The notes beneath the pieces are model-generated. The model was not told the DNA's origin. It saw nothing but the letters and a program-made list of their open reading frames with translations, and ran no database searches. Shown piece after piece: positions 1,576-51,567 of a stretch of DNA of 55,604 nucleotides (its first letter is position 1; each line of letters opens with the position of its first letter). This stretch comes from a virus (lineage: Duplodnaviria > Caudoviricetes). The position numbers and the translations under genes were made by a program. The DNA is taken from IMG/VR virus record IMGVR_UViG_3300004369_000019, positions 1 to 55,604 of that record, one strand, 5' to 3'.

Positions 1576-1592
1576 TATAGAAAAAGACTCTT

Positions 1593-3788: not shown

Positions 3789-3810
3789 GATTTATAAGTT
3801 AAAATTAGAA

Positions 3811-4159: not shown

Positions 4160-7100
4160 TTAGTCTCCTAGTGCTAGAATGAATGGTGTTACGTTATTGA
4201 ATAGTGACTTCAGATAGGTTCTACCTGTAATCGTTCCACTTGCTTGGTTGATGGTAACACCATCACCAATTCTAAAGTTACCTGCTTGGTCGGTAGAGGT
4301 ATAAATGACCTCACCACCATCTTCTTTAACAACCTCATTTTCTTGAATTGTTACACCACCAACACCAGGTCTTGCGGTAAAGATATCATTACCTGCACCA
4401 ACATATTCAAATGAGTGAGAAGATGTGATCTGTAAACTTTGGCGACTTAGATAAACTGTATCGCCAATTGATACATTATTATTTAACCCCTGAATAATTG
4501 TGATAGTTGAAAGACCTGCTTGTGGTAAAGTTGCAGATAAAACCTTGTAATATAAAGGATCTGCTTTTGTTACCTCTGCTGTTGCTTGTGTACCACCACC
4601 AGGAGGTGCTGCAATAGACACATTTGGAGTAAGAGTTTCATATTGAGTACCAGTATTGATTAATGTAATCGCAGTAATTGCTCCATTTTCTACAGTTGGA
4701 ATTGCTTGTGCGCCAATTCCATTTGGTCCTGTTGGAGCCTCAATAGTAATAATCGCATCATTTGGAGTGTTATATCCAGTTCCACCATTTGTAATGGTGA
4801 TAGTATTCAGAGAATAATAAAGTTTATCAATGTAGAACACTTGACCATCATAAGGTCTTTGTGTTCCAACTCCACTTACTTCTAAAGTAATATCATTCGC
4901 GGGTGCAGCAGATTCAACTTTCGCAGTTTGTCTATAGATAGACTTAGTTGTGTTATCACTAATACCTTGAGAAATCAAACCAATTCTTCCAAATGAAGAG
5001 TTTGAGTTTGTAAGATCACATTGTCCACCACTTCTTGTTACAATCGCTTCATCGCAACAAATTGTAAAGATAGACACTAACTGAGCGTAAGATCCGTTAG
5101 TGATTGATACTCCAATTCCTCTCTGGTTGTACTGAGTATAAGAGTCAACCGACATGGAACCCTGAACACCAATCTCATCCTCATCACCAGGTTCTGCAGC
5201 AAAACCATCGATCTTAAGACCAATACTGTCGAAAATAAAGTTCGTACAGTTTCTTACATACGGACCTTTAAAGACTTGTCCAACTCCAGGACTGAAGTTT
5301 GGATCAGAATCTTCACCTTCGGCAGGACCATAACCAGCACCATTAAATCCTTCAAATCTAGTAGTAATACCAGTTGGATTTACAGGACTTTGAATTGCGG
5401 TAATTCCTCCACCAACAATTGAAGTAACGATACCAATAACAGTATCGATAGAACTCATTACATTTTTACATCCAGCAGGACTTGTATTACTGTTGACTCT
5501 AGGATCATATTGAATAGACTCATCTTTAACTTGACCGCCACCAAAACTAGCATCTGTTTTAGTAAATGGTTGGAACTTCAGAATGTTACCGGTATTATCA
5601 GTATATGTATGCGAAATTTCAGTAGGTCCGAAGTTTGTTGTGAATGTTGTAGGTCCGACAATTGTATCAACATTAAAGATATTTCCAAATGTTCCATCTG
5701 GGAATACTGTTGTTGTAATCCCGATGAAAGCACTTCCACCACCAATGTAAGTATGATCTAGTGTCGAAACACCAGTATTAACGGTAATAGAACTTGCAAT
5801 AGAAAGTGTTGGGAAATTATTCAGATTTCCTGCACCAACGTGAGTTGTAACAATACCAATCAGACTATCAATAGAAGAACGAATATCTGCACAACCTAAA
5901 GGATCTGTATTGACTCCAACTGCAGGATCCGCAGTAATTGTTGTATCTCTATAATTAAGAACATTATTAATAGCTAATTTTGAATATGCTGCAATAGAAG
6001 AGAATGCAGTTACAGACTCTGACTCTTCACCAATTAATCCACCACTAATAGGATCACCAGTAGCAGTAAAATACTTTCTTGTAGTTTCTCTAATATTTTT
6101 ATTACTATCTGTTCTCAAATCATTGATTAGAGCATCAACAACATATGCAATGTCTCTTCTGCACTTAAATTCTCCACCTGGGAAGTTACCGTAATTAATT
6201 GTAAGACCATTGATAACATTAAGATTTTCTGACTCAATAGCTTCTGTTGCAATACCAACTAAGTTATCAATAGATGCTTGAACATCACTGCAAGAATATG
6301 TCTCACTATTTCCGATAGCAGGACTTCCATCACCAAAATAACTGGATCCGCCAGAAACTGTAGTATCTTTAGTTGATAACTGGTTAGCAACCGCCAATTT
6401 CATCTGATCTCTTGCTGTGTCGAAAGCGAGAATAGATTGTACTTCTTCACCATCAAGACCATTGGTAAGGAAAGTTCCAGAAGCATCAAAATACTTCTTA
6501 GCAAAAGCAATTGAATAATTATTTCCACTGGTAAAAATATCTGTCGAAACAGCATCTACAAGATAGTTCAAGTCTCTCTTACACTTATCTTCAGTTCCAG
6601 ATAATGCGGGATATTCTGTGACCATTGTGGTCCATGCTGTTCCAACAATCTCACCTTTGTTTTGTTGAATCAGACGATATGCATCTTTATATCTGGAAGT
6701 TGTTGTTATTGAGGAATCTCCTGGGAAGAAGAAATCTGGATGAACAATTGCAATATTTGCAAGAGCCTTATCTGTGATTTCTAACTTGTTGCCTGCAATT
6801 AAATTCGCAGAATCTTGATATCTATCTCCACCAACTTTCTCTACTGGGAAGTCATAACCAACAGCACCTGATGGGAAGAACTGAGTTGAAAGACCTCCAC
6901 CAGAATCACATTGGAATACTAAATTTTCTAGGCGAACTTTTCCATCATTTGTAATATATGCTGGATCATTATCGGAATTACCAGATCCACTTGCAGTAAA
7001 TCCAATCGTAGTAAATCCAGTGATTCTATCGTAAACGGCAGAATTAATTCCTACTTCTGGTGTATAATATCTCTGTACCTTAATTGTTCCCGATAAACCA

Positions 7101-22393: not shown

Positions 22394-23845
22394 CTATGGT
22401 CTTCCAAAAGGATTAATTTCACTAAAATCTAAAATATCATCTGCTTCGGATTCTATTTCAGAATTAGAAGCGAATGGATTTGGTATATTCAATGAATCTG
22501 CTATTGAATTTGGAGTTGCTTTATGTCTAGCTCCTGATTCTTCTCCGATAAATTCATCATAAATGTTAAACTCTCCAGTTAATCTGTAAAGTTGCAACTC
22601 ATTAGTTGTAGAATTCCAATATTTAACAACACCTGTAGTAGAACTGCTAGATCCAACAACAGTTTCTCCTATTTTATAATTACCAGACCCATTTAAATAT
22701 GGGTCTTCAATAGTTATCGTTGGGGGATTTGTTGTAGCATATCCAGCTCCAGCATCAAGTATTTGAATCGATGTAATTGTACCTAATCCACTTACAACAG
22801 CTTCGGCAATTGCTGTTGTACCAGATCCTGTAGGAGCACTAAATGTTATAGTTGGAAGTCCGGAATATCCACTTCCACTATCTGTTACTGTGATAATTCC
22901 AACAACTCCAGCTGTAGTAGATGCTGTTGCTACAAATCCAGACCCATCACCACCACCAATTGCTTGTATTAGAGGATCTGATGTATATCCATATCCAGTA
23001 TTAGTTAATCTAACTCCCTGAATCCTAGATTTATCGTCATTAGTATTGCAATAATCTACAATTCCAGAAATCATAGTTGCTACACCCACAGCAGTATATC
23101 CTGTTCCTGCGGGAGCTGAAGAAAATACAATATCTGGAGTAGAAGAATATCCATTTCCTCTATTTGTAATAGTAATATATCTAACACCACCATTAAAAAC
23201 AGTTGCTACGGCAGAAGCAGTAGATCCTACACCAAGCATGGTATAAGATCTAGATCCTGATGTAAGACCTCCAATACCAAGAGACGAAGATCCTGCTACA
23301 GAAGAATCTCCGAGAATAGCAGCATCTATAGTTTCTACATCAGTATCAATAATTTCATCACCATAACGGAATAATTCACATCTTAATTCATAAACATAAT
23401 TTTTTTGTAACTGATAAAATGGCTTCTCATGTTCAACAAATTTAATTTCAAATATTCTTCCACCCAAAGGAAAATAAATTAAATCTCCTTCTTTAGGTCT
23501 TTTTGATAATTTAATATTACTCTTATTTTCGATTAGAGGTTTAATATATTCTTCATAACGTTCTTTTGAAATGATAAGAGTTAAATCATCTTGCGATTGA
23601 ATACCAAATTTACTCATTATTTCGCCAGAACCTTCATATCCTTCACTAGTATCTACATATGCTTCAATAGGATATGCATCTCTAAATTCAGAATCTACTA
23701 CTTCTCTTATAACGGTTTTTTCATTTACATATAATCTTGGAATGTAGTAAACATCCACTCCATACATCCGAAGTTGCTCATTGACTAAATCTTGAATCAG
23801 ATTTTGTTCTGATTTTGATCCTTGTAGAAAAAATGGATTGAGCAT
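22394..23845 (-). CDS. gp14: Neck protein (head closure) with an extended G.GY-repeat insertion
   Basis: MLNPFFLQGSKSEQNLIQDLVNEQLRMYG, RPKEGDLIYFPL, FVEHEKPFYQL; ends DFSEINPFG. Confidence 0.92.
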   Translation of the reverse strand: MLNPFFLQGSKSEQNLIQDLVNEQLRMYGVDVYYIPRLYVNEKTVIREVVDSEFRDAYPIEAYVDTSEGYEGSGEIMSKFGIQSQDDLTLIISKERYEEYIKPLIENKSNIKLSKRPKEGDLIYFPLGGRIFEIKFVEHEKPFYQLQKNYVYELRCELFRYGDEIIDTDVETIDAAILGDSSVAGSSSLGIGGLTSGSRSYTMLGVGSTASAVATVFNGGVRYITITNRGNGYSSTPDIVFSSAPAGTGYTAVGVATMISGIVDYCNTNDDKSRIQGVRLTNTGYGYTSDPLIQAIGGGDGSGFVATASTTAGVVGIITVTDSGSGYSGLPTITFSAPTGSGTTAIAEAVVSGLGTITSIQILDAGAGYATTNPPTITIEDPYLNGSGNYKIGETVVGSSSSTTGVVKYWNSTTNELQLYRLTGEFNIYDEFIGEESGARHKATPNSIADSLNIPNPFASNSEIESEADDILDFSEINPFGRP

Positions 23846-34635: not shown

Positions 34636-36189
34636 TTAGAATTGCAAAATAACTTTAACGTCTTCTTTTTGACTCTTTGATCTTGTGATCGCCGGTCTGT
34701 TATCGACATATATGATGTCTCCTGAATATTTCTTTACTTCTGGAGGTGCAACACCATTCGTAAAATATTGTCCTAGATTGTAGGTAGTACTATTTATAGA
34801 TGTTGTTAGACCTGTGAAGTCTTCATCTATGTCTAATTCAATTGATCCACCGGAGATAGTCAAATTTCCAGTATCACCAATATCATTAGTAAATCTATGC
34901 TGAATATATCCATATTCTGGTATTCTCTGAGAACCATCTGTATTGAATCCAACTTGAGATTTATCCTGCCAGTATTTCAAAACTCCAGTTGTTTCGTCAT
35001 AAGATACTACTCTTCCAACAGCTGTGCTTCCTAAACCAACAGTTTGAGTTATTTCAGAATCAAACTCAAATGCAGCAGAACTATATCCAACTCCTGTTAA
35101 TTTTAATGCATAAACCGCACTAACTTTATCTTCAACAAGAAGTTCATTAGAACCATTTTTAGTTGGATTATGAACTATTCCAACTCTTGCGATTTGGTTT
35201 CCAACAACAAAATCTGGATTATCAGAATCATTTTCAATCCTTGTATATAAGAGAATATTGGTTGAACCAAGTTCTTTATAAATGTCTGCTCCATGTCCTC
35301 CTGGAGGAGGAATAATTACATCAAATGTTGGGATTTTATCTCCAAAATTTAAAGATGAATTTGTTAAATCTACTCTTCCGTGAGTATATCCTTCTCCACC
35401 ATCAGAAACGGTTATACTATCAACTTCAGATTCATTATTAATAATAATAGTACATTCTGCTCCTTCTCCATCGCCACTGATAGGTATATTATTGTAAGTT
35501 ACACCACCAGTTCCTAGTCCTGATCCTCTATCCGTAATAGTTACGATTTTAATTTGACCACTTGTTTGTGCAGTATCTCGCATAGAATCAAATGTTGTAT
35601 CAGTATCCCAATTTTTAGGAACAGGAATAAAATTAATCGAGTCAAATTTTACAATGTCCGCTGGTTTAATAGTGTATAGATATTTCCATACATACCCATC
35701 TCCACTATCTCCAGGAATCTGTGGTTCCAAATCTGTAAATAAAGGTTCGTCAAGAGATGGTCTTCCTTCTGGATTTTCTGGATCAGATCCATTTTGTAGG
35801 CAAATATAAACTCTGAAGTCACTATTGATAATATAAAAGTTTGATGAATAAAGACTTGTAGCGTTTGATGGTTTAGATAAGTTTGTTCTACTGATATCAT
35901 GGCGATACATATCGTAAGTAGTACCAGAACTCCAAGTAATTTTTCTAATTACCTGACGAATATCTTGTGAAGAAATTCTTTTAAGAGCAATCATGGTATC
36001 CCAATAATCAAATTCTTGCTCAAAAGAATCTTTTGGAGCAGGAGGAGATACATCCCAATTGCTAACAACATCTGTGGGATTTGGAAGTCCTATAAATGCG
36101 TAGAAAACATTATTTTCCGCATCTTCTGCAAGATCCAGAAAATTTTGCGAATTCAAAATTCTAATTTGATCAGTTATAATAGCGGACAT
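34636..36189 (-). CDS. gp8: Baseplate wedge subunit
   Basis: MSAIITDQIRILN; W.SGTTYDMYRHD; VYICLQNG; DGYVWKYLYTI; YVDNRPAITRS..QKEDVKVILQF. Confidence 0.9.
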   Translation of the reverse strand: MSAIITDQIRILNSQNFLDLAEDAENNVFYAFIGLPNPTDVVSNWDVSPPAPKDSFEQEFDYWDTMIALKRISSQDIRQVIRKITWSSGTTYDMYRHDISRTNLSKPSNATSLYSSNFYIINSDFRVYICLQNGSDPENPEGRPSLDEPLFTDLEPQIPGDSGDGYVWKYLYTIKPADIVKFDSINFIPVPKNWDTDTTFDSMRDTAQTSGQIKIVTITDRGSGLGTGGVTYNNIPISGDGEGAECTIIINNESEVDSITVSDGGEGYTHGRVDLTNSSLNFGDKIPTFDVIIPPPGGHGADIYKELGSTNILLYTRIENDSDNPDFVVGNQIARVGIVHNPTKNGSNELLVEDKVSAVYALKLTGVGYSSAAFEFDSEITQTVGLGSTAVGRVVSYDETTGVLKYWQDKSQVGFNTDGSQRIPEYGYIQHRFTNDIGDTGNLTISGGSIELDIDEDFTGLTTSINSTTYNLGQYFTNGVAPPEVKKYSGDIIYVDNRPAITRSKSQKEDVKVILQF

Positions 36190-36219: not shown

Positions 36220-36226
36220 TATTTAG
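36220..36226 (-). promoter_or_regulatory. Late promoter CTAAATA
   Basis: Overlaps the gp7 stop, upstream of gp8. Confidence 0.55.
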
Positions 36227-39200
36227 ACGTTATAATTAAGTGATTTTAAAGGATTCTTCCTTCTTAACATTGGAGAAGTATTAATACCTGTAACTCCATT
36301 ATCTCTCTTAATATTGTATACCTCTGGATAAGGTCTAACAATATTATCAAGTCTTCCCCAAGAGAAAGTTCCAAATGTTTGTCTAGAGAGGAATGAAGTA
36401 ATTCCTAAAGACTCATAAGTTTCAACAACAGTAACAACTTTTGTATTAGTATCTATGATCAATGTTGCATCATCCGCAACAGTAGTAGATACTCCAAATC
36501 CAATTGAATATGATCCATACCTTGTTAAACTCGCAATAAAGTCATCGCTAAGAACAATTATAGGAATATCTGTTGCAATATCATGAACTTGGTATACATT
36601 ATCAATATAATCTTTACCATCCACTAAATCAGAACCATCTGTTTCAATAGAAGTCAATCCAGCACCAGATATTCCAATGATTGAATCTCTGATAACAAAG
36701 TAATCTCCCGTTCCAATACCACTGTAGATAATTGTATTTCCACTTCCAACAATACTTTCATCCTTTAATGGAGAATTTTCTGGAATTGAGAATTCAAAAA
36801 CTAAACCTTGCGAAGACCCAGCTCCAATAGTTGTTGTTCCAACACCAATAACTTCACCAAAATCACCAGCATAATCAACTCTAAAGACAGTTTCTGATCT
36901 TGGAGTTGGTGGAGAAATTAGAACTGCTGGTGGATGGTTATCATCATAACCAGTTCCTCCTGCAGATACAGTAATAGTTGTTAATTGCCCAGAAGCAATA
37001 GCAGCAGAAGCTGTTGCTTGATCTCCACCATCTTCTACTGGTTTTCCTATAGAAATAGTTGGAATCTTGAAATATCCACTACCAGTATTTGTTACTGTAA
37101 TTTGGGTAACAATACCTGCTGTAACAGATGCAGTAGCTAATGCTTCTGAGGTATCATCTTGATCAATAATATCAACAGTGCTTACATATAAATCTGTTGT
37201 GTTTTCTTTTTGGTTATCAAAGAATGTTTTTACACCTTCAATCCATATTTGAGTGCTTGCTGCACCAACATCATAAATCAATGTAGTTAATGGAAGTATA
37301 GATGCTTCATAGATATCTCTATCTTTAGTAATTTCTTGACCATCGATGATAGCATCGGATGTTGCTCGACACCAGTTAACTGACCTTTCTATAAATGGAT
37401 CATCACTAATTCCAACACCACCATATAAAAATGTATCTACAGAATCCGTAGAAGTAACTTCTTTTACAGAACGGTCAGTCTGATCGAGATCTGGTTCATC
37501 ACTGAGCATTGTTAAAAGATCTCCAGCAGATACTGTCTCTAAGATATCTACAAATTCAACATCAATATCTCCAGTTCCTTTATAGAATAGAATCTTGCAA
37601 GAATCTCCTAATGCAGGAGCTTCAGTGAATCTAATAGTACTTCCTCCTGGGAACAAGTAAGCTTCTCCAGGAACTTGAAGAACGTCATTGATAAAAACAA
37701 GGAGAGTTGCTTGAACGTCGATTAAAGATCCTTTTCCTGCTTTAATTGATGTTCTAACACCATTGAATTTAATTGCAAATCTTGTTTTTTCTCCATTAAA
37801 TTGATCACTGATATCATCAATTACATCAAGATCTCCAATAGTCCATCCAGTAAATTGGTCAGTTTCAGTTTTGGTAATATAGAAATTGAACTCATTAAAA
37901 TCTAATGTTGTTGGTAACGTTAAAGTTGGTTCAGCGGAAGGAGATTCAATTACCGGAGCATATGCAGATCCATCACCAATAATTGTGGTAATAATTCCAA
38001 CTAAGTTATAAATTGAAGATGCAACATCAGAACAGCAGTCCACACTATAAGAAGGACTGCAATCAGTATCATAATCAATTGTAGTATCTGTATACTGAGT
38101 AACCGATACTGCTATTCCTTGATATGATACTGGTAAAATTTGATTGTTTATAACGTATGTTGAAATACCAGCAAGATAATCATATGTTGCAATAGTTTCT
38201 GTAGTCTCTCCGGTAACATAGTTTAGTGGTCCATTCCAATACTTATTACCAGCTGCAACAGAATTAAAGTTTCCGCCAAAGAAGAGATCATTTGCTAAGG
38301 CATCAACAATATATCCAGTGTCTCTTTCGCACTTAGTTTCATCGTAATCTGGGTTAGAAAGTAGAGAAGGATATGTAGCCGTTGCATATCCAACAGCTTC
38401 TTTAATCAAGAATTGCCTATTGTAAGCAAGGAGATTTCCAGCATCAGCAAATCTTCCATGATACATGTAAGGAATTCCATCTGTTCCACCAACAGAAACT
38501 GTTAATACATTGTTGATTTCATATCCATATCCAACATTTTTTATTTCAAAGTCAGTTACACTAGATCCTTCTCCAACAACAACACTAACCTTTGCAGCTC
38601 TTCCTCCAGTATCTCCAATTGAAGTTGTGGAATATGTTGTAGCAAGATTATCATATGGAAGAGGATCATCAAAGTCCACTGTAAAGTATTTTTCAACCTT
38701 ACCGCCAGAACTATAAGAGTAAGAATCTGTAGTGACTCCAGTATTAACTTCAAACTCAGTACCACTATTAACTGCTCTTACACTTAAATATTCTATTATG
38801 GGACTATTAATAATTTCTCCCACTCCAGAAAGAACAACTTCATTACCAACAGATAATCCATGTGCAGTAGATGTTGTAACTGTTGTTAACCCAGTTGTTG
38901 TAGTATGACCAACAGTAGATATATCTCTAGGAACATAGAATACATCAGAATTTGTAACAGCTACTCCAGTAACTCTTCCTCTAGTAACAAGAGCAGTTCC
39001 TATTGCAACTTTACTGGAGGATTCTACAGTTTCTTCGCGAATATAAACTTCGATATTGGTTTGAATTCCAGTTCTATATCCACCACCAACATTAGAAATG
39101 TTAATCGCACTGATAGTTCCTGCAGAAGAAACTGTAGCGGTTCCAGCAGCAGAAACTAACGATTGATATCCAAATCCTTTGGTAGATCCAACAGAAACAA

Positions 39201-42200
39201 TTCTTCCACCAACAGGAAGACCCTTGATAATAATATCATCTTCTCTATCATATTCACTTTCATCAAATATGATATTTGTAGACCCACCACTTTCTTCTAA
39301 AGTATAGTTTCCTTCAATATCAACATTAGACTGATCTACTTTAGGTGACTGGAAAAGATCGTTTACTGTGATGATAGCATTACTTGCGGAAATTCCATCA
39401 ATACTTTGTCCACCAACTTTTAATTCAAAAGAACTTTGAATTCCAGTAAATTGATCTTCAATTCCATCAAACACATAGTTTTTATAATATGGATCATTTG
39501 TTGTATCAACATCTGCATTTCTCATGAAAGTTCTTCCACTAAATCTAGAGAAAGTTGTAATTCCCGTATAATCTCTTTGATCTGGACGGTTATCTGGAAG
39601 CCCAACTGGTGTTTTTCCATATGGAGCATCAGCGAAACTAATTGTATTATCAACAATATTATAGTTACCAATGATTTTGGTCATTAAATCATACTGTCCA
39701 TGATTCGCCAACTTTGTACCAAGAACTGCTCTCTGAACGTAAATATCATTATCAGATCCACCATATCCAACTATGGTGACTCTAACAATTTCATCATTTA
39801 TTTGTAGAAAATCTCCAGTGAAGAATTTCTCTGGTTCTGAAACTATAGTAAGAACATCTTCGACTGTAGTAAATCCGTTAAGAAGAGATGTAGTAGTAGC
39901 TGTAGATACAATCGGAGACTGTATCATATTATCAATGGTTACTAAAGATTTAGGATTTTGATTTTTTGCAGTTATATAGTGTTCGGATCCAACACCAACA
40001 CTTATAATATCAAGGGGTGTTGGTCTTAATGCTAAAGCATCTGTAGCAGAAGCGGCTACTTTAACCAGCAGTTCATCTTCTTTGATTATGAATAATGAAG
40101 AAGGTAACTTATCAGTGCTTCCTATTCCTGGAATTGTTGTGGTAGCAATTCCAATTGGTTCATTTGTAGAATCATAAGAATATATGACTTCCTCTCCAGT
40201 TACAAAGAAATGCTGAGGTAATTCAATAGTGTTTTCTGTTACACTAGTAATAGCAATGTTAGATCCATCAAATTCTTTCTGGAAAATTGGATTACCTTTA
40301 TGGAAAAGTTCAAAATCTCTCTTAATTTCATTTTGAGTTCCAATGTATTCTGAGTTACCAGTTAATATCTCACCATTAGTAAGATTAATTTCAGTTACAT
40401 CATTTGAAAGATCTCTTATTCCGATATGATGTGCATACACTCTAACTTCAGCATCAATTGAAGATCCTGCTGTAAAATAAATGTTTGTTACTGTTCCTGC
40501 AACTCCTGCAGTAACTATACCAACTTCGCTATCAGTAAATAATTGACCAAATTCTGTATAATAAGCTGTTGTTGCTGTAGATGCAACAACTACCTCAGAA
40601 AGTTGATATTTTTGATTCGTGTTATCATCAATACTAACAATATAGTAACCACTACTGTAATCATTAATTCCAGTAATACCATTATCATAAGAAGCAATAA
40701 TATTTCCTCCTGTACTTTCTGTGCTTGCTATAGATGTGAAAGTAGATTCAATGAGTGTGGTAGACATATTGGTCTCACCAGGTGTTGTAAATCCAGACTC
40801 TGAGGAAGCCAAGGATACTCTCATAACATTAACATCTGCATTCAATAACACGTTAGGAATAAGGTCAACTTTAATATTTGATCCATCAATGTATGCATTG
40901 TATGTTCCTATTCCATCAGTAGAATATTCTGTTAAAGTAGTTGTTAATTGACCATAATCTTGAATAGTAACGTCAGATCCATCATGAATAACAGAAATTT
41001 CATCAAATTCATATACTTGAGTACTATCTTCTACTTGAACAAGTAATTTTGAAGATCTATAATCTAATGGTATGGTTGCAATAGTTGTTGTTGCTCCAGA
41101 AGAAACTGAAGAATTTTCTAAGTAAACAGTAGCAACGTTTCCAAATACGGTTGATCCAATTCCTGATGTATAATCATCGATGTTATAAGTAACAAAGCTT
41201 AAATCATAATCATTGACCAAATATTTGTTTGGATAGAATTTGAATTGACCTTCATCCTCAAAAATAGAGAAATCAAAAGATCCTAAGTCTCCAACTGTTT
41301 CAACTCTTCCGTATTGATTGACATAGAAATTGTTATCATCATGTATGGTTGTTACGATATAAACTTGTCTTTCTCCAGTAAATCTACTATCTCTTGAGAA
41401 TACGATGTATTTTCTAGCTCTACTATCTGCAAGTTTAAAATTATCAATTACACTAAATCTATCTGATCTTGGTTCACTGTTAAATTGATCGCTAATATCA
41501 TCAATAATAAGAACTCTATTACCAACAGATTTATTAAAATCTTGAAGTTCTCTGCTATTGAAAACCATTCCGGTTGAGAATCTCTTCGATCCAATTAAAG
41601 TTGTCTCATCAACAACAATATCAAAATCATAAACACAATTTGTATTTACAACTCTACTGAAATCTGCAACAGAAACAAAATCTCCTCCATCTTGCGATGT
41701 CGATATTCCTGTATAAGAAAGATCTCTAGACTCTATACTGTAATCACTAAATCTCTTCCATCCAACAAGGTGATTTAATCTTCCAACTTCGTCTTCCCAA
41801 ATATTTTCAGAAACTGTACTTTGAATACTGTAAGAGAAGTGCTGATAATAGTCACTATCATGAATCTTATATTCATTGTAATTAAGGAATCCTTTAGTAT
41901 CAGTCCACTCTTTAGTAATTATAGCAGAAGATCTAATATCATAATAAAGTTCTGTTAATTGAATATCATTAATTTTACCAACGGTTCCACTTTTTGCTCC
42001 TTCGACATCTTCATTAAGTTCAAATGTTTGTTGTCCAAAATATTTTAATACTTCTGATCCAGAATCATATCTTTGGACTTCTCCTTTAGATCCTGTTGTT
42101 CTTCCTGTTATTATTTCTCCAGGTATAAATTCATTTCTTTTTGTTTTTACAACAAATGTTGGGAAATATACTTCAGGAACAACAATTCCTGTTGCACTGA

Positions 42201-45200
42201 TATCATCATATTCTCCAAGAGTTTCTACACTTCCAACAACTGGAGACATATCAAATTTTATGGATCCAAGAGATCCTCCGAAGTTTGGATCTATTTCTGT
42301 TATTTTATATAATGAATATTCAAAATCAGAACTATTGAAAGATCTTCCAGAACTTCCTAAAGTTTTTGAAGCACATCCTTCGATTAAAACCTTCTTACCA
42401 ACTTCAAATGGGAAATCAAAACCAGCACTAAAACTAGTCTTGAATGTTAAAGTAGCTATTTTAGTAGAATTATCGAAAGTCAAAGATTTGATACTAAATC
42501 CATTTGAGTTATTGGTTGGAATTATTTGTGGAGTATTATTTGATAATTCGTTTGTATTTTTAACTATGAATACAGATCCACTTAATTCATATTTTAATAT
42601 AAGATCTGTTAGAACTTTATTTGATGCTGTATCCTTTACGATTAAATCTGGAGCAACAGTATAGTTAATTCCTGATGTTTCTCTAGTGATTGTATCAAAA
42701 GAAAGTTTTTGATCAAGAATTAATACATCTGGAAGTTTAGCAGTTGGCTTTAATGTAACATCTGTTGGATAATCCCAACCAACATCTTCAGTTTTAAATA
42801 CTTTTTTACCACCAATCGAATCAGTTACAATTCTAACCTTTGCTCCAGATCCTGTTTCAGTTGCAACCGTGACTATTCCAACAATTGATTTATATCCAAA
42901 TCCACCATTAGCAACATATACATCGTGTATTGGTCCAGTTGCATTAATAGATCTTGTAACATAATTCAAAGAAGAATCTGTAGATGTAAAAGAAGTTATT
43001 CCTGGATAAGATCTGGGACTATCATAAACAAAAGAAGATGTGGAAGTAGAGACAACAACATGACCACCAGATAGTCCTTGCTCTGTTATCTCTATTTGAC
43101 CTGGATTTTGAACTCTGTAGGAATCAACTATAGAACCAGACTTTAATTCTGAAATTCCTTTAACTTCTTTAGGACTTAATACATAATATAAAAATCTTGG
43201 AGTTAGTCCGTTTACAGTTATTTCAACTTTAGCATCATTATCAACACCTATCCGTCCAGTTTGTTTAACAACAAAATTTCCAAATTGATCTGTAATATAT
43301 TCGTTTTGATAAGATGAATCTGTATAAATTTTAAAATCAAATGCAGTTAGTTGTGTAGTTCCATCAACATACGAGAGAGATGAATCTCCTAAATTAAATC
43401 TTATTGTTTTGTCTCGATTAACTTTTAATTTGGGATGAACAGTTCTCAAAAATACATTACCTGCAGTAGAAAATCTTATTGTGTTTCCGAGATTGCTAAT
43501 AATAGTTGTCGTTCCAAGTCCAACAGCTTGATCATAATATTCATAAAGATTAAATTTATTTCTACTTACATATTCTGTAAAATAGAATTTGTCTTTAAGA
43601 AGATCTGGAGTATCTGTAAATTGCACAAGCACCTTATCACCATCTTCAAAACCATGATCTTCAACAGTTATTTCATTGGTTGATGTATTAATTCCTGCAG
43701 ATGGTATGAATACTTGATTAACTAAGGTTCTCTTAGTTGCATCATTATAATAAACATCGAATTCTTCAACCCCACCTGGTCTTATGAATATTCTAAATTT
43801 ATCTCCAACTTCCATACCATGAGTTTCTGCTGTAGATACAGTAACTCTGGACTTAGATACTTCTAAAGGCATGAATTCAAAAGCTGTCTTAAAGCTATGA
43901 TTTTCCCCTGTACCTAATCCAACAAAATACAATAAATCTACATCAATATCAGTTCCAGCAACACCAACATATGACTGATCATATCCTGGTTTTGTTATTG
44001 TGGAAATTCCAATTTCATTTGTAGATATTCCTATTAAATCTTTTGTTAATCTTACAGCAAATAGTGATTGACCATCACTGAGATGAGTAGATCCAATACC
44101 TGTAGTTGATACTGCTAGAGGATCTCCAGTATTTGAATAGTATATTAATTCATCATTAGTCTGTATACCATGACCTGGAAAATATAATGCTCTAGTTGGA
44201 ATATTTAAATATGTTGCTCCAGATCCAGGATTATTAAAATACAAATTAGTAGTTATTCCCGTTCCTGCTGTCGTTCCAATTCCAACTGTTTCTTCTGGAT
44301 TAAAATAAATCTCTCTATTTACTGTAGAAAAATCACCTAAGTTTAAACTTATTTTAAAATGAGTTGGTAAAATAGTTGCTTTATTTTCCAATGAATGTGC
44401 AGATCCAACTGTACCATCATGCTCTCTTAAAACTCTTAATCTAGAATTTTTCTTATCTATATTAAGAATTTTCATTTTTTCATCATTTATAATAAAAATA
44501 TCATTTGGATATACCGAGACATTATTTTCTTTAATAGGAAAATAAATTACAGGACCAGTAGTAGCAGCATCCGCAATATCTCTTGTTAAAGTAAAAATTT
44601 TATTTTCGACAATAACAGCAGCTTGAGTATCTACAGCAATTGCAGATGCCGTAGATACTCCAACAACATCTACAAAATTATCATTAGTCAGTCCATGTTC
44701 TTGCTCACAAAATATAATTGTTTTACCATTAGCAACTTGATATCCTTGAGCTACTGGTATATACGTTTCCGTAACAGCTAAAGAAGTTATAGTTTTTCCT
44801 TTAATTTCGGATACAAAAGCAACAGCTCCTGTTCCACCAGTACCCACATTATCTACAAAAGAAATTGGATCTTTTACTTTGTAATTATCTCCGGAATCTA
44901 AAACATCTATATCATCAACTGATCCAGCAGAAAGATCAGTGATTTTTGAAAAATGAGCATCAAATTGATTTGGTTGGATAAGATACTCATATCCACTATA
45001 CCATTGTTTTAAATTATATGGAGTTACATTTCTCCTACATCCATATTCTTGAAAATCAAATTCAACTTGATTTGTATCTTTTGCAGTATTATAGTTAAAA
45101 AGTATTGGAGTGTATTCAAAATCGTCTCCAACTATATAAGGAAAAGCTGGGAGTTTGTTTTGTGAAAATTGACCTTCCGCTTGGACGATTTCACCTATGG

Positions 45201-48200
45201 TCATGAAATATGCATAAACTCCATTAGGAAACTCTGGAGTTATACAAAATCTACCATTATTTCTATCTAAATCCCCATTCCCTCTGAATTGATAATCATT
45301 AATAAAAAGTCCTAATTTAAAATTTGGTCTATTATCTTGTTCTTCTAATTCATATCCAGAAGTCATTCTACGAACTTGACCACCTTCTGGAGTATCATAT
45401 CCATATGGTCCATAAATGGGACTACCATCATAAGCCCAACCAATAATTGGTGAATGATATGGATCCGATGCAAAATCATTATTTAAATCAGTTCTATATT
45501 TTTGAACGCCCTCTTCAAACTTTTTAGCATAACACAAATTTCTTAATTTTCTAGGCGGATATATATGCGTATATTGCATCTCAAAGTCTTTATCAATACT
45601 TCTTACAAGATATCCGTCATCACTAGTAATTGATTGCTCATCAATAAGTCTTGCAACTTGATCAAAAGTCCATTTTTTAATTTTAAACTGTAACTGAGCT
45701 CCGACTCCAGGAGAATTTATTACAACTGATGGATTACTACCGTAATTATTTCCTTTACCATTTATATAAACTCCGCTAATTTTTCCTCCAGAAACAATCG
45801 GTGATATTTCTGCACTTGATGTTCTAAATCGATTACCTTGTTCATTCAATTGGAACAATTCAATATCTGGAGTTGCATTATAATTAGTTCCTCCAGAAAC
45901 AACAACTACATTTTCTAATCTTCCATCAAAAATAATTGGATTTAATACTGCACCATCTCCAGTGAGTATAGAATAATTTGGTTGTCTTTCAGAGTTAATA
46001 ACATTTTCAGACCCATAATTACTTCCACCATCAACTACATCTACTCTTATAACTTCACCTCTAAAAATAGGATCTATCTTTGCTTTAGCAGTATTTTCTA
46101 CTTTTCGAGAAACATCTAAAATTCCATTTATTTCTATAGTAATTGGAACATCTTTAAATATATGATATCCCGATGGGGCAGAACCTAACTCTACAATTCT
46201 ACCAAGTTTTGCATAATAATCTGATCCACCAAGACTTAGATCAGTATTTTTCTCATAAAGAGAAAAAGAATTGTCGGTTGTCTTAATAACATAATAAGTA
46301 GATGATGTAGAAAGACCTGCAATAGGCTCACTTCCTGTGTATTGGTATACAACTTCATCACCATTGTTAAATAAATGATTTGATTTTGAAATACTATAAG
46401 CGGATGTACTTATACCAGATGAAGTAACTGTAACTACATTATTTCTGTATCCTTCTCCTGGTTGAGTAATTTCAACTCTTCGTAAAGAAAATTTTGGTGC
46501 TGTTGATGTAAAAATGTGATTACCAACACCACGTGTTGTTATACCTACTGTGTTTATTCCCGCAGCAGCGTCAAATGGTGACTCATGTAATGTAAACTTA
46601 GTAGTATTGATTGGATTAATATAATATACATTACCGTCTACTAATCCCCCTAAAGCAGTTTGACCTTGACTAGAGTAAATTACTTCATCATCATCTCTGA
46701 AGTTATGAGGATTTTCTGAAATAATAGATCCATCGGAAAGAGAAACTTTGGTAGAAAGATCAGATCTAAAAGTAACTACATGATTTACAGACTGTAAAAT
46801 TGGCTCAACTTCTGCAGCTTTAGTTGGATTTCCTCCACTTATAATAATACTATCAATTTTTATATAATCAATTCCAGGATATGTAACATTTACTCTTTGT
46901 AGCAGTCCTCTTACACATACATTTCCTGAGAAATTTGATCCGGAAGAATCAATAACACTTAACTCTGGAGGATTTATTACGTCGTAACCCTCTCCTCCAC
47001 TGTTAACAACTACTTCTTCAATTTCTCCATAAAAACAAGCATCTTTAGATTTGTAAGATATAATCTCAACTCCATTTTTAAATATTCCAACTCTTTCTTG
47101 AGGTAAAATTTCATAATCAACTTCGTCTATTGTATAATTTTTTTGATCTCTTATTTTTCTTATTGCATATTGTGGAGATAATTTTAATTGCTGATTACTG
47201 GCACCAATATTACTGATTCTCACTAATTTAGCAAAGTCTGCAAAACCATTAAATGTAACAAAAAATTGAGATTCTAAATTACTTCTACTTTTAGAAAGTC
47301 TAAAAGAATCATCATCAATTTTGAATATAAAATAATAACCAACTAGATCAAGAGTATTTTCTTCGGAAAATGAAGAATCATACCATACAGCATCTCCCGT
47401 ATAAAAACCATGTTTATTTGAAGTTATAATAGTAGAATTTACAAAAGTTCCCTTAATTATAACATCTCTATAATTTAATTCTAGATCATCATTAAAATAA
47501 TTTGGAAGAGAATTCGTCGCCACATAAACACTGTTTTCTAAATCTACATATGTGTTTTGAACGTTTGCAATAAATTCAGTATTTTTTGCTTTTGTTATAA
47601 ATCTCTTTACATAATAAGCTTCTACAATTTCTCTATCATTGATAATTCTAAATGAATTATCTGGTGTTGGACCAGAAAATACTTCAAAAACTTTTTCTAT
47701 TCTTTCTAAAGAACCGTCTAAATTTCTAACATCACAATTAACTAATACTGATTCGCCACCATTAATTCTACACTTATCATAAGTAGTAATTGAATAATTT
47801 AAATTTCCTTCGTCAGATAATTCAAAAACCCTATTTGATATAGCATGGTTGTACATCCATTCTGTTGTTCTGATATCATCTGTCTCTTTTCCTAACGTCC
47901 ATACCTTAGCATAATCTCCTATTTCGCTAAATGAAGAAGATCTTATTTCTTTGATCTCTCCAAGAACTCCAGAAACTCTCATTCTTACTTCTTTTTCTTC
48001 ATTATCATAAGAGTAAACATAAGAATTTACTCCAATAGTCCACCCAGATTCAATTGGTTTTGTTACTCCAGTTACATTTAAAAACTGATTTAAGTTAACT
48101 CCATTATAATTAACGAGCATGAATGTATCTTGAATTCCAGCATCTTCATCCCCATTAAATAAAACTAATAGCTCTCCCTCTGCAGCAAATCCTACTGTAG

Positions 48201-49197
48201 AATCAACAGTAATTGTACTGGATCCAATTGAAACAGATTCTAAAGTTTGTGTTTGTGAATGTAAGCTAAATTCTCCAAATACTGTTCCTTGTGTACTTAA
48301 ATCTCTGTTATATCCATAATCTAAGCTAATAACATAATAATCATTTCCATTTTTTTCAATATTCTTTACTCCTACAACTGTTCCATAAGATGTCGGAATA
48401 TCTCCATCTTTTTCTTGATATAATACCCTATTTAAAATTTGACTTGGATCTCCTGATATCTCTTCAACTACTAAGTCTAAAGTTTTTCTATAGTCAGCAG
48501 ATGATGGCTTGATTAAGAAATCTCTTGGTCTTATTATTTTTGCAGTAGTTCCATACAGAGCTTTAAATAAAATATTGAAAGAATCATCTCCACCCTTAGT
48601 GCTATAAAAATCTTTTATTTGTTTAATAAAAAGACTTCTATTTAATTTTTCTGTAAAAGTTACATCTTCAAATCCAGGAGCAAATTGAATTTTTAGTTTA
48701 GTAAAAAATTCATCAAGCAATAAAGCATTTAAATTATTTACTAAAGCTCCAGAAAGATGATCATCAATTGTCGTTTCTGAGAATTCTAAAACATCAGTTT
48801 TATCAAAAACAGTATAACTAGTAACTCCACTAAAACCTCTAATACATTCTTCAAAAGAAGTTTCAGTTTTAGATTTATAGTAAATTATCTCATCATCTAT
48901 TTTTAACATCCCATTTTCAAAAGGATATCCTTTTGTAGATGTTACATAAACAACATCATCAAAAGCACCCAGATCTTGTGTTAATTCTGTTGTGCTAATA
49001 GAATCAGCTACAAAATCTAACCTTGTGTATGAATCTGGATTTGTTAATAAATCATATGCTTGTCCAGGATTTTCTAGATACTCGTAGTATTGTTGTAGAA
49101 ACTCAACAAAAAAAGGATAATCTTCTCTCGCAAATAGAGGTAACTGACTCTCTACTATGGAGGATAATTTGACTTTGTTGCGAGAACTTCCGTGCAT
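36223..49197 (-). CDS. gp7: Baseplate wedge initiator, giant cyanophage type (4324 aa)
   Basis: Between gp6 and gp8. KLSSIVESQLP.F.REDYP.FVEFLQQYY; IKQIKDFYSTKG; HSPIIGWAYDG.PIYGPYG; IHDSDYYQ.FSYSI.S. Confidence 0.85.
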   Translation of the reverse strand: MHGSSRNKVKLSSIVESQLPLFAREDYPFFVEFLQQYYEYLENPGQAYDLLTNPDSYTRLDFVADSISTTELTQDLGAFDDVVYVTSTKGYPFENGMLKIDDEIIYYKSKTETSFEECIRGFSGVTSYTVFDKTDVLEFSETTIDDHLSGALVNNLNALLLDEFFTKLKIQFAPGFEDVTFTEKLNRSLFIKQIKDFYSTKGGDDSFNILFKALYGTTAKIIRPRDFLIKPSSADYRKTLDLVVEEISGDPSQILNRVLYQEKDGDIPTSYGTVVGVKNIEKNGNDYYVISLDYGYNRDLSTQGTVFGEFSLHSQTQTLESVSIGSSTITVDSTVGFAAEGELLVLFNGDEDAGIQDTFMLVNYNGVNLNQFLNVTGVTKPIESGWTIGVNSYVYSYDNEEKEVRMRVSGVLGEIKEIRSSSFSEIGDYAKVWTLGKETDDIRTTEWMYNHAISNRVFELSDEGNLNYSITTYDKCRINGGESVLVNCDVRNLDGSLERIEKVFEVFSGPTPDNSFRIINDREIVEAYYVKRFITKAKNTEFIANVQNTYVDLENSVYVATNSLPNYFNDDLELNYRDVIIKGTFVNSTIITSNKHGFYTGDAVWYDSSFSEENTLDLVGYYFIFKIDDDSFRLSKSRSNLESQFFVTFNGFADFAKLVRISNIGASNQQLKLSPQYAIRKIRDQKNYTIDEVDYEILPQERVGIFKNGVEIISYKSKDACFYGEIEEVVVNSGGEGYDVINPPELSVIDSSGSNFSGNVCVRGLLQRVNVTYPGIDYIKIDSIIISGGNPTKAAEVEPILQSVNHVVTFRSDLSTKVSLSDGSIISENPHNFRDDDEVIYSSQGQTALGGLVDGNVYYINPINTTKFTLHESPFDAAAGINTVGITTRGVGNHIFTSTAPKFSLRRVEITQPGEGYRNNVVTVTSSGISTSAYSISKSNHLFNNGDEVVYQYTGSEPIAGLSTSSTYYVIKTTDNSFSLYEKNTDLSLGGSDYYAKLGRIVELGSAPSGYHIFKDVPITIEINGILDVSRKVENTAKAKIDPIFRGEVIRVDVVDGGSNYGSENVINSERQPNYSILTGDGAVLNPIIFDGRLENVVVVSGGTNYNATPDIELFQLNEQGNRFRTSSAEISPIVSGGKISGVYINGKGNNYGSNPSVVINSPGVGAQLQFKIKKWTFDQVARLIDEQSITSDDGYLVRSIDKDFEMQYTHIYPPRKLRNLCYAKKFEEGVQKYRTDLNNDFASDPYHSPIIGWAYDGSPIYGPYGYDTPEGGQVRRMTSGYELEEQDNRPNFKLGLFINDYQFRGNGDLDRNNGRFCITPEFPNGVYAYFMTIGEIVQAEGQFSQNKLPAFPYIVGDDFEYTPILFNYNTAKDTNQVEFDFQEYGCRRNVTPYNLKQWYSGYEYLIQPNQFDAHFSKITDLSAGSVDDIDVLDSGDNYKVKDPISFVDNVGTGGTGAVAFVSEIKGKTITSLAVTETYIPVAQGYQVANGKTIIFCEQEHGLTNDNFVDVVGVSTASAIAVDTQAAVIVENKIFTLTRDIADAATTGPVIYFPIKENNVSVYPNDIFIINDEKMKILNIDKKNSRLRVLREHDGTVGSAHSLENKATILPTHFKISLNLGDFSTVNREIYFNPEETVGIGTTAGTGITTNLYFNNPGSGATYLNIPTRALYFPGHGIQTNDELIYYSNTGDPLAVSTTGIGSTHLSDGQSLFAVRLTKDLIGISTNEIGISTITKPGYDQSYVGVAGTDIDVDLLYFVGLGTGENHSFKTAFEFMPLEVSKSRVTVSTAETHGMEVGDKFRIFIRPGGVEEFDVYYNDATKRTLVNQVFIPSAGINTSTNEITVEDHGFEDGDKVLVQFTDTPDLLKDKFYFTEYVSRNKFNLYEYYDQAVGLGTTTIISNLGNTIRFSTAGNVFLRTVHPKLKVNRDKTIRFNLGDSSLSYVDGTTQLTAFDFKIYTDSSYQNEYITDQFGNFVVKQTGRIGVDNDAKVEITVNGLTPRFLYYVLSPKEVKGISELKSGSIVDSYRVQNPGQIEITEQGLSGGHVVVSTSTSSFVYDSPRSYPGITSFTSTDSSLNYVTRSINATGPIHDVYVANGGFGYKSIVGIVTVATETGSGAKVRIVTDSIGGKKVFKTEDVGWDYPTDVTLKPTAKLPDVLILDQKLSFDTITRETSGINYTVAPDLIVKDTASNKVLTDLILKYELSGSVFIVKNTNELSNNTPQIIPTNNSNGFSIKSLTFDNSTKIATLTFKTSFSAGFDFPFEVGKKVLIEGCASKTLGSSGRSFNSSDFEYSLYKITEIDPNFGGSLGSIKFDMSPVVGSVETLGEYDDISATGIVVPEVYFPTFVVKTKRNEFIPGEIITGRTTGSKGEVQRYDSGSEVLKYFGQQTFELNEDVEGAKSGTVGKINDIQLTELYYDIRSSAIITKEWTDTKGFLNYNEYKIHDSDYYQHFSYSIQSTVSENIWEDEVGRLNHLVGWKRFSDYSIESRDLSYTGISTSQDGGDFVSVADFSRVVNTNCVYDFDIVVDETTLIGSKRFSTGMVFNSRELQDFNKSVGNRVLIIDDISDQFNSEPRSDRFSVIDNFKLADSRARKYIVFSRDSRFTGERQVYIVTTIHDDNNFYVNQYGRVETVGDLGSFDFSIFEDEGQFKFYPNKYLVNDYDLSFVTYNIDDYTSGIGSTVFGNVATVYLENSSVSSGATTTIATIPLDYRSSKLLVQVEDSTQVYEFDEISVIHDGSDVTIQDYGQLTTTLTEYSTDGIGTYNAYIDGSNIKVDLIPNVLLNADVNVMRVSLASSESGFTTPGETNMSTTLIESTFTSIASTESTGGNIIASYDNGITGINDYSSGYYIVSIDDNTNQKYQLSEVVVASTATTAYYTEFGQLFTDSEVGIVTAGVAGTVTNIYFTAGSSIDAEVRVYAHHIGIRDLSNDVTEINLTNGEILTGNSEYIGTQNEIKRDFELFHKGNPIFQKEFDGSNIAITSVTENTIELPQHFFVTGEEVIYSYDSTNEPIGIATTTIPGIGSTDKLPSSLFIIKEDELLVKVAASATDALALRPTPLDIISVGVGSEHYITAKNQNPKSLVTIDNMIQSPIVSTATTTSLLNGFTTVEDVLTIVSEPEKFFTGDFLQINDEIVRVTIVGYGGSDNDIYVQRAVLGTKLANHGQYDLMTKIIGNYNIVDNTISFADAPYGKTPVGLPDNRPDQRDYTGITTFSRFSGRTFMRNADVDTTNDPYYKNYVFDGIEDQFTGIQSSFELKVGGQSIDGISASNAIITVNDLFQSPKVDQSNVDIEGNYTLEESGGSTNIIFDESEYDREDDIIIKGLPVGGRIVSVGSTKGFGYQSLVSAAGTATVSSAGTISAINISNVGGGYRTGIQTNIEVYIREETVESSSKVAIGTALVTRGRVTGVAVTNSDVFYVPRDISTVGHTTTTGLTTVTTSTAHGLSVGNEVVLSGVGEIINSPIIEYLSVRAVNSGTEFEVNTGVTTDSYSYSSGGKVEKYFTVDFDDPLPYDNLATTYSTTSIGDTGGRAAKVSVVVGEGSSVTDFEIKNVGYGYEINNVLTVSVGGTDGIPYMYHGRFADAGNLLAYNRQFLIKEAVGYATATYPSLLSNPDYDETKCERDTGYIVDALANDLFFGGNFNSVAAGNKYWNGPLNYVTGETTETIATYDYLAGISTYVINNQILPVSYQGIAVSVTQYTDTTIDYDTDCSPSYSVDCCSDVASSIYNLVGIITTIIGDGSAYAPVIESPSAEPTLTLPTTLDFNEFNFYITKTETDQFTGWTIGDLDVIDDISDQFNGEKTRFAIKFNGVRTSIKAGKGSLIDVQATLLVFINDVLQVPGEAYLFPGGSTIRFTEAPALGDSCKILFYKGTGDIDVEFVDILETVSAGDLLTMLSDEPDLDQTDRSVKEVTSTDSVDTFLYGGVGISDDPFIERSVNWCRATSDAIIDGQEITKDRDIYEASILPLTTLIYDVGAASTQIWIEGVKTFFDNQKENTTDLYVSTVDIIDQDDTSEALATASVTAGIVTQITVTNTGSGYFKIPTISIGKPVEDGGDQATASAAIASGQLTTITVSAGGTGYDDNHPPAVLISPPTPRSETVFRVDYAGDFGEVIGVGTTTIGAGSSQGLVFEFSIPENSPLKDESIVGSGNTIIYSGIGTGDYFVIRDSIIGISGAGLTSIETDGSDLVDGKDYIDNVYQVHDIATDIPIIVLSDDFIASLTRYGSYSIGFGVSTTVADDATLIIDTNTKVVTVVETYESLGITSFLSRQTFGTFSWGRLDNIVRPYPEVYNIKRDNGVTGINTSPMLRRKNPLKSLNYNV
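37970..38454 (-). other. Phycobiliprotein-like domain inserted in gp7
   Basis: RFADAGNLLAYNRQFLIKEAVGYATATYPSL...TKCERDTGYIVDALANDLFFGG (C3623)...YVINNQ...DCCSDVASSIYNLVGII (C3721/C3722). Confidence 0.72.
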
Positions 49198-51156: not shown

Positions 51157-51567
51157 TTATCTTAGTGGTTGGAATACAAACTCTAATGTTTCTATATCTG
51201 GACTAATTCCAATTATTCTGTATGTTATCTTAATATCTACCGAATTTGAATCATATGGACTTGCATTAACTACTACATCATCCAACTCTACTCTTGGTTC
51301 AAACTCCTTAATAGTTTGTTTTATCTCTGAACGTATAACTTCTCTGGAGTTTTCATCCAAAGAATTTGTAAATAATAATGCATTAACTCCACAACCAATA
51401 TCTGGTTCAAAAAATCTCTCTCCGCGTATTGTGGAGACTAAATTCCTAACAGCCCTTGATATTGCACGAGAATTTGATAAAGAAACACAGTCACCCGTTG
51501 TGGGATTTTTAACAAATGAAAGGCTAATATCTTTAAATTGCTTGGAAGTAACCAGTTCTAAAGGCAT
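51157..51567 (-). CDS. gp25: Baseplate wedge subunit / sheath initiator
   Basis: FKDISLSF..NP; AVRNLVST.RGERFFEPDIG; FEPRV. Confidence 0.93.
   Translation of the reverse strand: MPLELVTSKQFKDISLSFVKNPTTGDCVSLSNSRAISRAVRNLVSTIRGERFFEPDIGCGVNALLFTNSLDENSREVIRSEIKQTIKEFEPRVELDDVVVNASPYDSNSVDIKITYRIIGISPDIETLEFVFQPLR

Follow-up and report, generated by a model that had tools for sequence, protein, structure and literature searches.

A phycobiliprotein-like module in the baseplate wedge protein gp7 and tail fibers of T4-like cyanophages, with a candidate bilin site

We analyzed a 55,604-nucleotide stretch of viral DNA (positions 1 to 55,604 of the IMG/VR record IMGVR_UViG_3300004369_000019; Duplodnaviria, Caudoviricetes), hereafter the window, which encodes a giant form of the baseplate wedge protein gp7. 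Within this protein lies an all-helical domain that is very probably homologous to the phycobiliproteins (PBPs), and that has paralogs in a tail-fiber-like protein of the same window. The domain belongs to a large module family that has been shuffled among the baseplate and fiber proteins of T4-like cyanophages; in this gp7 it was inserted, together with a beta module, in the C-terminal third. The features that concern the domain are as follows (coordinates are those of the window; aa, amino acids).

36223..49197, minus strand: gp7 baseplate wedge protein gene, a single stop-free open reading frame (ORF) of 4324 aa
37972..38454, minus strand: phycobiliprotein-like globin-core domain, gp7 residues 3582-3742, helices A-H without an X-Y hairpin (from the structural model, fold searches and hhalign)
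38269..38331, minus strand: motif C-x-R-D-x-G-x3-D-x4-D-x3-G-G-N (Cys3623, Arg3625, Asp3626), aligned to the PBP bilin site Cys84-Arg86-Asp87
38032..38061, minus strand: loop cysteines before the last helix, the co-varying pair Cys3713 and Cys3721, and Cys3722 (from the clade alignment)
38686..38895, minus strand: beta module upstream of the domain, gp7 residues 3435-3504 (from a pairwise match to the fiber protein)
37927..38835, minus strand: segment of gp7 (residues 3455-3757) present here, with ~34 aa in its place in the gp7 of phage Bellamy (from blastp blocks)
4160..9220, minus strand: 1686-aa tail-fiber-like protein with paralogous copies (from blastp, hidden Markov model [HMM] and PHROG tail fiber families)
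~8141-8602, 7337-7756, 6194-6715 and 5783-6223, plus fragments, minus strand: paralogous copies within the fiber protein

A sequence-only reading of the window had placed the domain at 37970-38454, which is right to within one codon: gp7 residue 3582 (R) is encoded by 38452-38454 and residue 3742 by 37972-37974, with the gene on the minus strand. The peptides it quoted (RFADAGNLLAYNRQFLIKEAVGYATATYPSL, ETKCERDTGYIVDALANDLFFGG and DCCSDVASSIYNLVGII), as well as the flanking GGTDGIP and FNEFNFYIT, can all be read in the gp7 translation. It had also described the gp7 copy as uninterrupted, with other copies ~30 kb away, and our searches bear this out. A blastp search of the gp7 domain against all window ORFs of >=60 aa gave five high-scoring segment pairs in the 1686-aa ORF (expectation values [E] from 3.8e-15 to 5.6e-5), and a six-frame search of the record found the domain at 6 places. 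An HMM built from relatives identified four substantial copies and two fragments in the fiber protein, and one complete copy in gp7. In two of the fiber copies, the alignment passes from the first helices directly into a beta-type stretch, which leaves the gp7 copy as the uninterrupted one. The gp7 domain itself begins right after a beta-type region. The beta module there was said to resemble those of the 1686-aa protein, and it does: gp7 residues 3435-3504 match fiber residues 349-429 with 35% identity over 82 columns (pairwise E 2.3e-6).

In the copies at fiber residues ~214-353 and ~494-602, a beta module apparently interrupts the domain after the G-type helix and before the last one, in the loop that bears Cys153 in beta phycobiliproteins. 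Separate pieces holding only the last helix lie further along the fiber protein, for example at residues 1225-1280.

The predicted structure of the domain is a globin-like fold comprising helices A, B, E, F, G and H. We ran AlphaFold2 without templates on a 29-row alignment of phage domain copies only (alignment A2, which was also used for the profile and for Pfam scans). The sequence-only reading had put the domain forward for structure prediction, and the resulting model has a PBP-like globin fold, all-helical with six long helices, at a predicted local distance difference test score (pLDDT) of 86.4 and a predicted template modeling score of 0.84. Fold searches of this model placed PBPs first by both methods used. 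Among the 33 rows listed by Foldseek against the PDB, 31 were titled phycobiliproteins, with one 'Bacterial fluorescent protein' and a cytoglobin in last position (rank 50); the PBP matches had template modeling scores of about 0.6 and a best E of 3.4e-3. VIA-align, run against 48,161 chains, returned PBP-family proteins in all of its best 8 rows (Z 15.6-12.2), including the bilin-binding domain of ApcE (Z 13.1; root mean square deviation [rmsd] 2.5 A over 116 residues). Below the PBPs came a photocobilin domain (Z 11.6), then sensor globins (Z about 11). These proteins share the fold class of the phage domain and offer a precedent for globin-fold signaling modules inside larger proteins, and no sequence-level match was found between them and the phage domain.

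Sequence profiles point to the same family. All 29 matches of the A2 profile among PDB sequences were phycocyanin alpha chains (best E 0.0034). The profile was needed for this match, because phmmer with the single domain sequence against the PDB sequences gave only chance-level lipase rows (E about 0.08). A search of the ESM Atlas with the domain gave no usable match. The Pfam PBP family PF00502 was matched by 13 of the 29 A2 members (E up to 10, best 8.3e-5), and no other Pfam family was matched by more than one of them. We then compared the phage domain with a reference alignment of 11 phycobiliproteins from one Synechococcus genome. Here, hhalign gave a probability of 88.7% and an E of 2.5e-6 over 98 columns (PBP columns 32-138). 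The score of 42.75 was reached in none of 200 shuffles of the template columns (12.2 +/- 2.3, maximum 21.5), and a reversed template scored 11.0.

Both alignments place the bilin site of the PBPs on the same residues. The HMMER profile alignment sets K-C-x-R-D-x-G of the phage domain on K-C84-x-R-D-x-G-Y-Y of phycocyanin alpha, and the triad Cys84-x-Arg86-Asp87 on helix E corresponds residue for residue in the HMMER and hhalign alignments alike. The Cys, Arg and Asp of this triad are invariant in all 11 reference PBPs. As a DNA pattern, C-x-R-D...D...D...GGN occurs once in the window and in none of 100 shuffles.

The phage domain is thus like the PBP subunits (PF00502: CpcA/B, CpeA/B, ApcA/B) in its globin-type helices A-H and in the helix-E Cys-x-Arg-Asp register (Cys84/Arg86/Asp87), followed by a GG[TN] turn. 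It also resembles the ApcE bilin domain in being embedded in a large multidomain protein, in that case the core-membrane linker. It differs in its setting, being an insert in virion baseplate and fiber proteins, whereas a PBP is a free 160-180-aa subunit of the phycobilisome. Identity to PBPs is only 13-18%, the window copy falls below Pfam thresholds, and two family-invariant residues, Asp62 and Tyr78, are unlike PBPs. The N-terminal X-Y helix hairpin, which makes the alpha-beta monomer of PBPs, is missing, because alignments begin at PBP column 32 or, for the low-rmsd structural matches, at PBP chain residues 34-50. The domain likewise lacks the proximal histidine of heme sensor globins: none of the 181 model columns is led by His, and the highest listed His share is 0.11, where it is the third residue of column 99.

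The bilin-site cysteine is conserved throughout the family. Of 311 full-length copies, 294 (95%) have the Cys84-type cysteine, with the Arg in 97% and the Asp in 98%; in the wider set of 1585 copies in which the site is covered, Cys is found in 1521, Arg in 1521 and Asp in 1564. This cysteine is the only one in 207 of the 311 full copies, and in most copies it therefore cannot belong to an intradomain disulfide. Two sequences depart from the pattern. The locus L013 (2115-2660; 70% identity) and the metagenomic fragment P0107 carry a scrambled, frameshift-like stretch exactly over C-x-R-D, with the rest of the domain intact; either decay of the copy or an artifact of assembly might account for this.

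The gp7 copy has three further cysteines, all in the long loop that precedes its last helix. We aligned the gp7 copy with seven close relatives, P0071, P0149, DSL-LC03, two P-HM1 copies and two fiber copies from the window itself. Cys3722, which lies directly before the last helix in the context D-C-C-S-D-V, is present in 14 of the 14 copies of this clade that cover the position. Its motif in the clade, C-[SAI]-[DN]-[VI], in the context D-C-[CS]-[SA]-D-V, resembles the GDC[AS][AS]L of beta PBPs. From this likeness we infer that Cys3722 may be equivalent to Cys153, the second attachment cysteine in the G-H loop of the beta subunit; the hhalign alignment ends at column 138, before this part. Across the family, the second-cysteine motif occurs in only 34 of the 311 full copies, so it is a trait of the gp7-type subfamily. 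The conservation of cysteines on which the sequence-only reading had staked its case therefore stands for the Cys84-type residue, and for the second cysteine within the gp7-type and own-fiber copies, and does not extend to the second cysteine family-wide. Cys3713 and Cys3721 go together: 6 copies have the two, and 4 of the closest relatives have neither. This covariation suggests that they may form a loop disulfide.

Several results weigh against homology to the PBPs. Taken singly, the PDB profile, Pfam, Foldseek and VIA-align results are each moderate. Foldseek gave no row at E up to 0.001 against the PDB, and hence no clear match by the tool's own standard, and VIA-align carries the warning that helical models often reach Z of about 14. 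The gp7 copy from the window, searched alone, matched no Pfam family even at E 10, and did not reach the PF00502 gathering score; a six-frame PF00502 match in a related giant protein reached 17.8 bits, under the cut-off of 22.2. Nevertheless, separate lines agree on one family and on one residue register, and we regard true homology as very probable.

The protein that carries the domain is the T4-type gp7, by profile and by position between gp6 and gp8. The PHROG family phrog_2885 ('baseplate wedge subunit') matches gp7 residues 4-3509 with E 0 and 2784 bits, whereas Pfam Baseplate_wedge gives only a weak N-terminal match (18.9 bits, with the cut-off at 27; E 0.0011). The neighboring genes are further baseplate wedge genes.

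51157-51567, minus strand: gp25 baseplate wedge gene (phrog_261, E 4.6e-41)
49236-51155, minus strand: gp6 baseplate wedge gene (phrog_219, E 8.8e-182)
34636..36189, minus strand: gp8 baseplate wedge gene (phrog_438, E 1.2e-164)

The order gp25-gp6-gp7-gp8 is also found in four annotated cyanophages (P-HM1, Bellamy, DSL-LC03 and P-TIM68). The gp7 of T4 and of cyanomyoviruses (phrog_2885) is thus the same protein by profile and gene order, and differs in whether the domain is present, at which site and in how many copies. The window has no close isolate: a 4-kb piece of gp7 gave no megablast match among 50,697 phage records. By gp6 identity, its nearest relatives among the panel phages described below are P-TIM68, S-SM2 and Bellamy, at 49-50%.

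Comparison with these relatives shows where the domain entered. The gp7 of the window is colinear with those of Bellamy and P-TIM68 over about 3450 residues at 33-37% identity, and HMM search finds the domain in neither. Against Bellamy, residues 5-3454 align to 2-3479 and residues 3758-4324 to 3514-4067, so that Bellamy has 34 residues in place of the 303 here. The most similar isolate copy (48% identity) is in the gp7 of DSL-LC03, but ~1000 residues earlier; at the insertion site of the window, DSL-LC03 has only about 10 residues. The gp7 of P-HM1 contains two copies. Among metagenomic orthologs, P0149 (48% identical, full length) has the domain at the same gp7 site, and P0140 has a tandem run of domains there. 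A single-protein search for related loci gave 7 close loci. The closest copies overall (56-58% identity) are in P0071, a protein of 3437 aa that otherwise shares nothing with gp7. Because Bellamy and P-TIM68 lack the domain, DSL-LC03 has it elsewhere and P0071 is not a gp7, we find support for the earlier proposal of a mobile domain exchanged between virion proteins, both between sites and between proteins.

Giant gp7 holds other modules as well. A YHYH domain (PF14240) inside residues 1241-1334 (window 45196-45477, minus strand; E 1.6e-23, well above the Pfam cut-off) is another borrowed module. The C-terminal part of gp7 (~4000-4095; window 36913-37200, minus strand) shares a module with a 483-aa neck protein (ORF 22394..23845, minus strand): the gp7 part matches phrog_460 (head closure Hc2) at E 3.7e-17, and the neck protein, itself of phrog_460, matches positions 3921-4036 of the phrog_2885 profile. 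The protein has 17 cysteines across its 4324 residues, 4 of them within the phycobiliprotein-like domain. Elsewhere in the window, two structural-module ORFs, at 9295-12393 (1032 aa) and 14708-16423 (571 aa), both on the minus strand, match no PHROG family at E up to 1e-10.

The family is large and, among isolates, occurs only in phages of Synechococcus and Prochlorococcus. With phmmer, 1029 proteins out of 1.84 billion representative sequences matched at E up to 0.001, 308 of them at E up to 1e-30. The longest have about 6400 residues, and a single protein may contain as many as 34 stretches matched by phmmer, or 37 copies by HMM. Three metagenomic proteins (P0003, P0004 and P0005; 4799-6382 aa, on contigs of up to 122 kb) consist largely of this domain, in 30-37 copies each. 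The domain was matched by 334 of the 50,697 phage records, which by name comprise 267 Synechococcus, 56 Cyanophage, 10 Prochlorococcus and 1 Marine phage.

Among 185,579 species genomes, a degenerate DNA pattern hit 25 loci, 24 of them in records titled metagenome-assembled genome (MAG) or bin and one in a strain assembly. True copies (1-9 per locus, at 32-44% G+C) are present at 23 of these loci; the other two (L021 and L023) hold no domain and are chance matches. The 23 loci look like mis-binned phage contigs. For one such contig, L031, 118 of the 133 matching records were Synechococcus phages. The freshwater contig L018 matched only one Pelagibacter phage fiber, over 3% of its length, which is uninformative on host; with its divergent domain copy as query, all 23 matches were to Synechococcus or Prochlorococcus phages.

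Public annotation does not name the domain. Every protein of the phmmer family that bears any name is called 'hypothetical protein'. Matching BFVD structures belong to tail, fiber, structural or uncharacterized proteins of Synechococcus or uncultured phages, and none of these entries is annotated as a globin or phycobiliprotein. Full-text literature searches, with subscription journals and supplements outside their reach, found no description of such a domain.

Cyanophages carry cpeT, pebS, pcyA and ho1, genes of the same pigment pathway that are separate from the domain and lie outside the window. We related the domain to pigment genes by whole-record searches of a panel of 29 complete cyanophage genomes, 28 of them from myoviruses and one from the podovirus P-SSP7. 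Eighteen of the records came from search matches and the accessions of P-SSM2, P-SSM4 and P-SSP7; the other 11 comprise nine GU0711xx accessions and two search-match records. The domain was called with the A2 profile at E up to 0.001, CpeT with PF06206 and ferredoxin-dependent bilin reductases with PF05996. By these calls, 21 of the 29 phages have the domain, and Bellamy, P-TIM68, P-SSM2, P-SSP7, S-SRM01, S-SM2, S-SSM7 and S-8S55 do not. Among the 21 domain-positive phages, 19 have cpeT: 17 at E up to 1e-3, together with S-ShM2 and P-SSM7, which pass the family cut-off only once two halves in one frame are summed. None of the eight domain-negative phages of the panel has cpeT, and no candidate appeared in them even in a first look. 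Naive Fisher tests of domain against cpeT over the 29 phages give p from 1e-5 to 1.2e-4, values that are invalid as they stand because the panel phages are related. The window covers only about a quarter of a genome. A CpeT-like ORF of 160 aa (34.5 bits, summed) is present on a contig with a gp7 domain 85% identical to that of the window.

The bilin reductases show a different distribution. Of the domain-positive phages, all 7 that were isolated on Prochlorococcus have one, as against 1 of the 14 from Synechococcus. This split would fit a need for phage-made bilin where the host makes little, and may equally be a matter of host-linked gene content. In P-SSM7 (GU071103.1), the CpeT-like frame (13416-13832) adjoins the bilin reductase gene (13936-14535).

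Adsorption in the dark has been compared for some of these phages. According to PMC6628666, P-HM1 and P-HM2 do not adsorb in the dark, P-SSM2 and P-SSP7 do, and S-PM2 is cited as light-dependent in adsorption. The same paper suggests, as a possible cause, light-sensitive host receptors or phage tail fibers, independent of host photosynthesis as for S-PM2. With the A2 profile, we count 4 domain matches in the P-HM1 genome (two of them in gp7), 5 in P-HM2 and 9 in S-PM2, and none in P-SSM2 or P-SSP7. As for the phage pigment genes, PMC3037559 describes the role of cpeT as 'unresolved' and speaks of 'a mystery' for pcyA and pebS.

What gp7 carries is thus a PBP-derived globin core whose Cys-x-Arg-Asp site is intact, inserted along with a beta module. 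We propose that during infection a bilin would become attached, by thioether linkage, to the conserved cysteine or cysteines. The bilin could be phycoerythrobilin or phycocyanobilin, supplied by the host or by phage bilin reductases. Bilin attachment in the ApcE domain is autocatalytic, and attachment here might be so too; host lyases or the phage T-type lyase CpeT might instead carry it out, CpeT in particular at the Cys153-type site that the gp7-type subfamily has kept. T-type lyases serve Cys153-type sites. The structure of a phage CpeT was reportedly described by Gasper et al. in 2017. Pigment would in this way come to be exposed on the baseplate and fibers of the assembled virion, and absorbed light might alter the module or its neighbors and so contribute to the light-dependent adsorption of some cyanomyoviruses. 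The conserved cysteine may carry a bilin in the virion, at a probability that we put slightly short of even. The further step, in which such a pigment would be a photoreceptor that gates adsorption or baseplate triggering, with bilins installed with the help of phage CpeT and, in Prochlorococcus hosts, of the phages' own reductases, we consider unlikely.

A number of observations tell against a virion pigment and photosensor. DSL-LC03 has the domain, but no cpeT was found in its genome, and ACG-2014f has only an 11-bit cpeT match. In a gp6 tree, which excludes the podovirus P-SSP7, all seven domain-negative myoviruses fall in one well-supported clade of 12 rows that includes the window. Each trait needs 3 changes on this tree and only 3 contrasts are independent; cpeT goes the same way as the domain in 1-3 of the 3 and never the opposite way (sign test, p 0.25 or more). 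The association between cpeT and the domain is thus phylogenetically shallow, at about three independent contrasts. Bilin reductases do not track the domain, and we rejected them as a correlate: they are found in 8 of 21 domain-positive and 3 of 8 domain-negative phages. The agreement between domain presence and light-dependent adsorption spans only about four lineages. The second, Cys153-type cysteine, which is the site expected for a T-type lyase, is present in only those 34 of 311 full copies, and for the near-universal Cys84-type site we know of no phage lyase. Furthermore, the high copy numbers within single proteins, up to 34-37, have the look of a structural repeat or an antenna rather than of a sensor.

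The alternative that survives best is a structural or adhesive module without pigment. A host PBP gene would have supplied it long ago, and it would now serve as a compact helical spacer or receptor-binding unit in baseplate and fiber proteins, with C-x-R-D kept for folding or for another contact. Long tandem runs of up to 34-37 copies in giant proteins are typical of structural repeats, and the domain is shuffled with beta modules as other fiber building blocks are. Such a module would also suit the lost X-Y hairpin, the 13-18% identity to PBPs in fold alignments, the invariant Asp62 and Tyr78 that are not PBP signatures, the failure of the window copy in Pfam and the retention of the domain without cpeT in DSL-LC03. 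It is harder to reconcile with a lone cysteine kept in 96% of extracellular copies beside the Arg-Asp pair that holds the bilin, which folding alone would hardly explain, or with cpeT never occurring without the domain among the 29 phages. We rate this alternative as possible, though not probable.

We think it distinctly unlikely that the conserved cysteine serves some other chemistry, either an intermolecular disulfide or cross-link that locks tail subunits, or the binding of a different ligand or metal in the old bilin pocket. One cysteine per copy, as in those 207 of 311 full copies, would suit links between subunits; the paired gain and loss of two extra cysteines in the gp7-type subfamily suggests that disulfides form; and sensor globins and the photocobilin domain also score well in the fold search (Z 10-11.6). 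However, the model offers no conserved heme histidine, as no column among its 181 is led by His, and the Arg-Asp pair beside the cysteine is specifically the bilin-contact pair of PBPs. Last, that the PBP resemblance of an unrelated helical bundle is convergent or due to chance is very improbable: single searches are marginal (E of 0.0034 for the PDB profile and 3.4e-3 for Foldseek) and high Z values are common among helical models, but four methods agree on one family and the same residue register, and the hhalign score is about 13 standard deviations above the column shuffles, with 0 of 200 reaching it.

A pigment-binding virion domain, if that is what the conserved site marks, would answer two questions: why some cyanomyoviruses adsorb only in the light, and why phages carry cpeT and bilin synthesis genes. 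It would also extend the PBP family to a non-photosynthetic, extracellular role. Were the pigment to act as a photosensor, it would be the first known case of a virion with a photoreceptor of its own, and would explain the light-dependent adsorption of S-PM2, P-HM1 and P-HM2 together with the presence of cpeT, pebS and pcyA. Even without a pigment, the domain clearly exemplifies how a host light-harvesting fold has been taken into the stock of shuffled parts from which phage tails are built.

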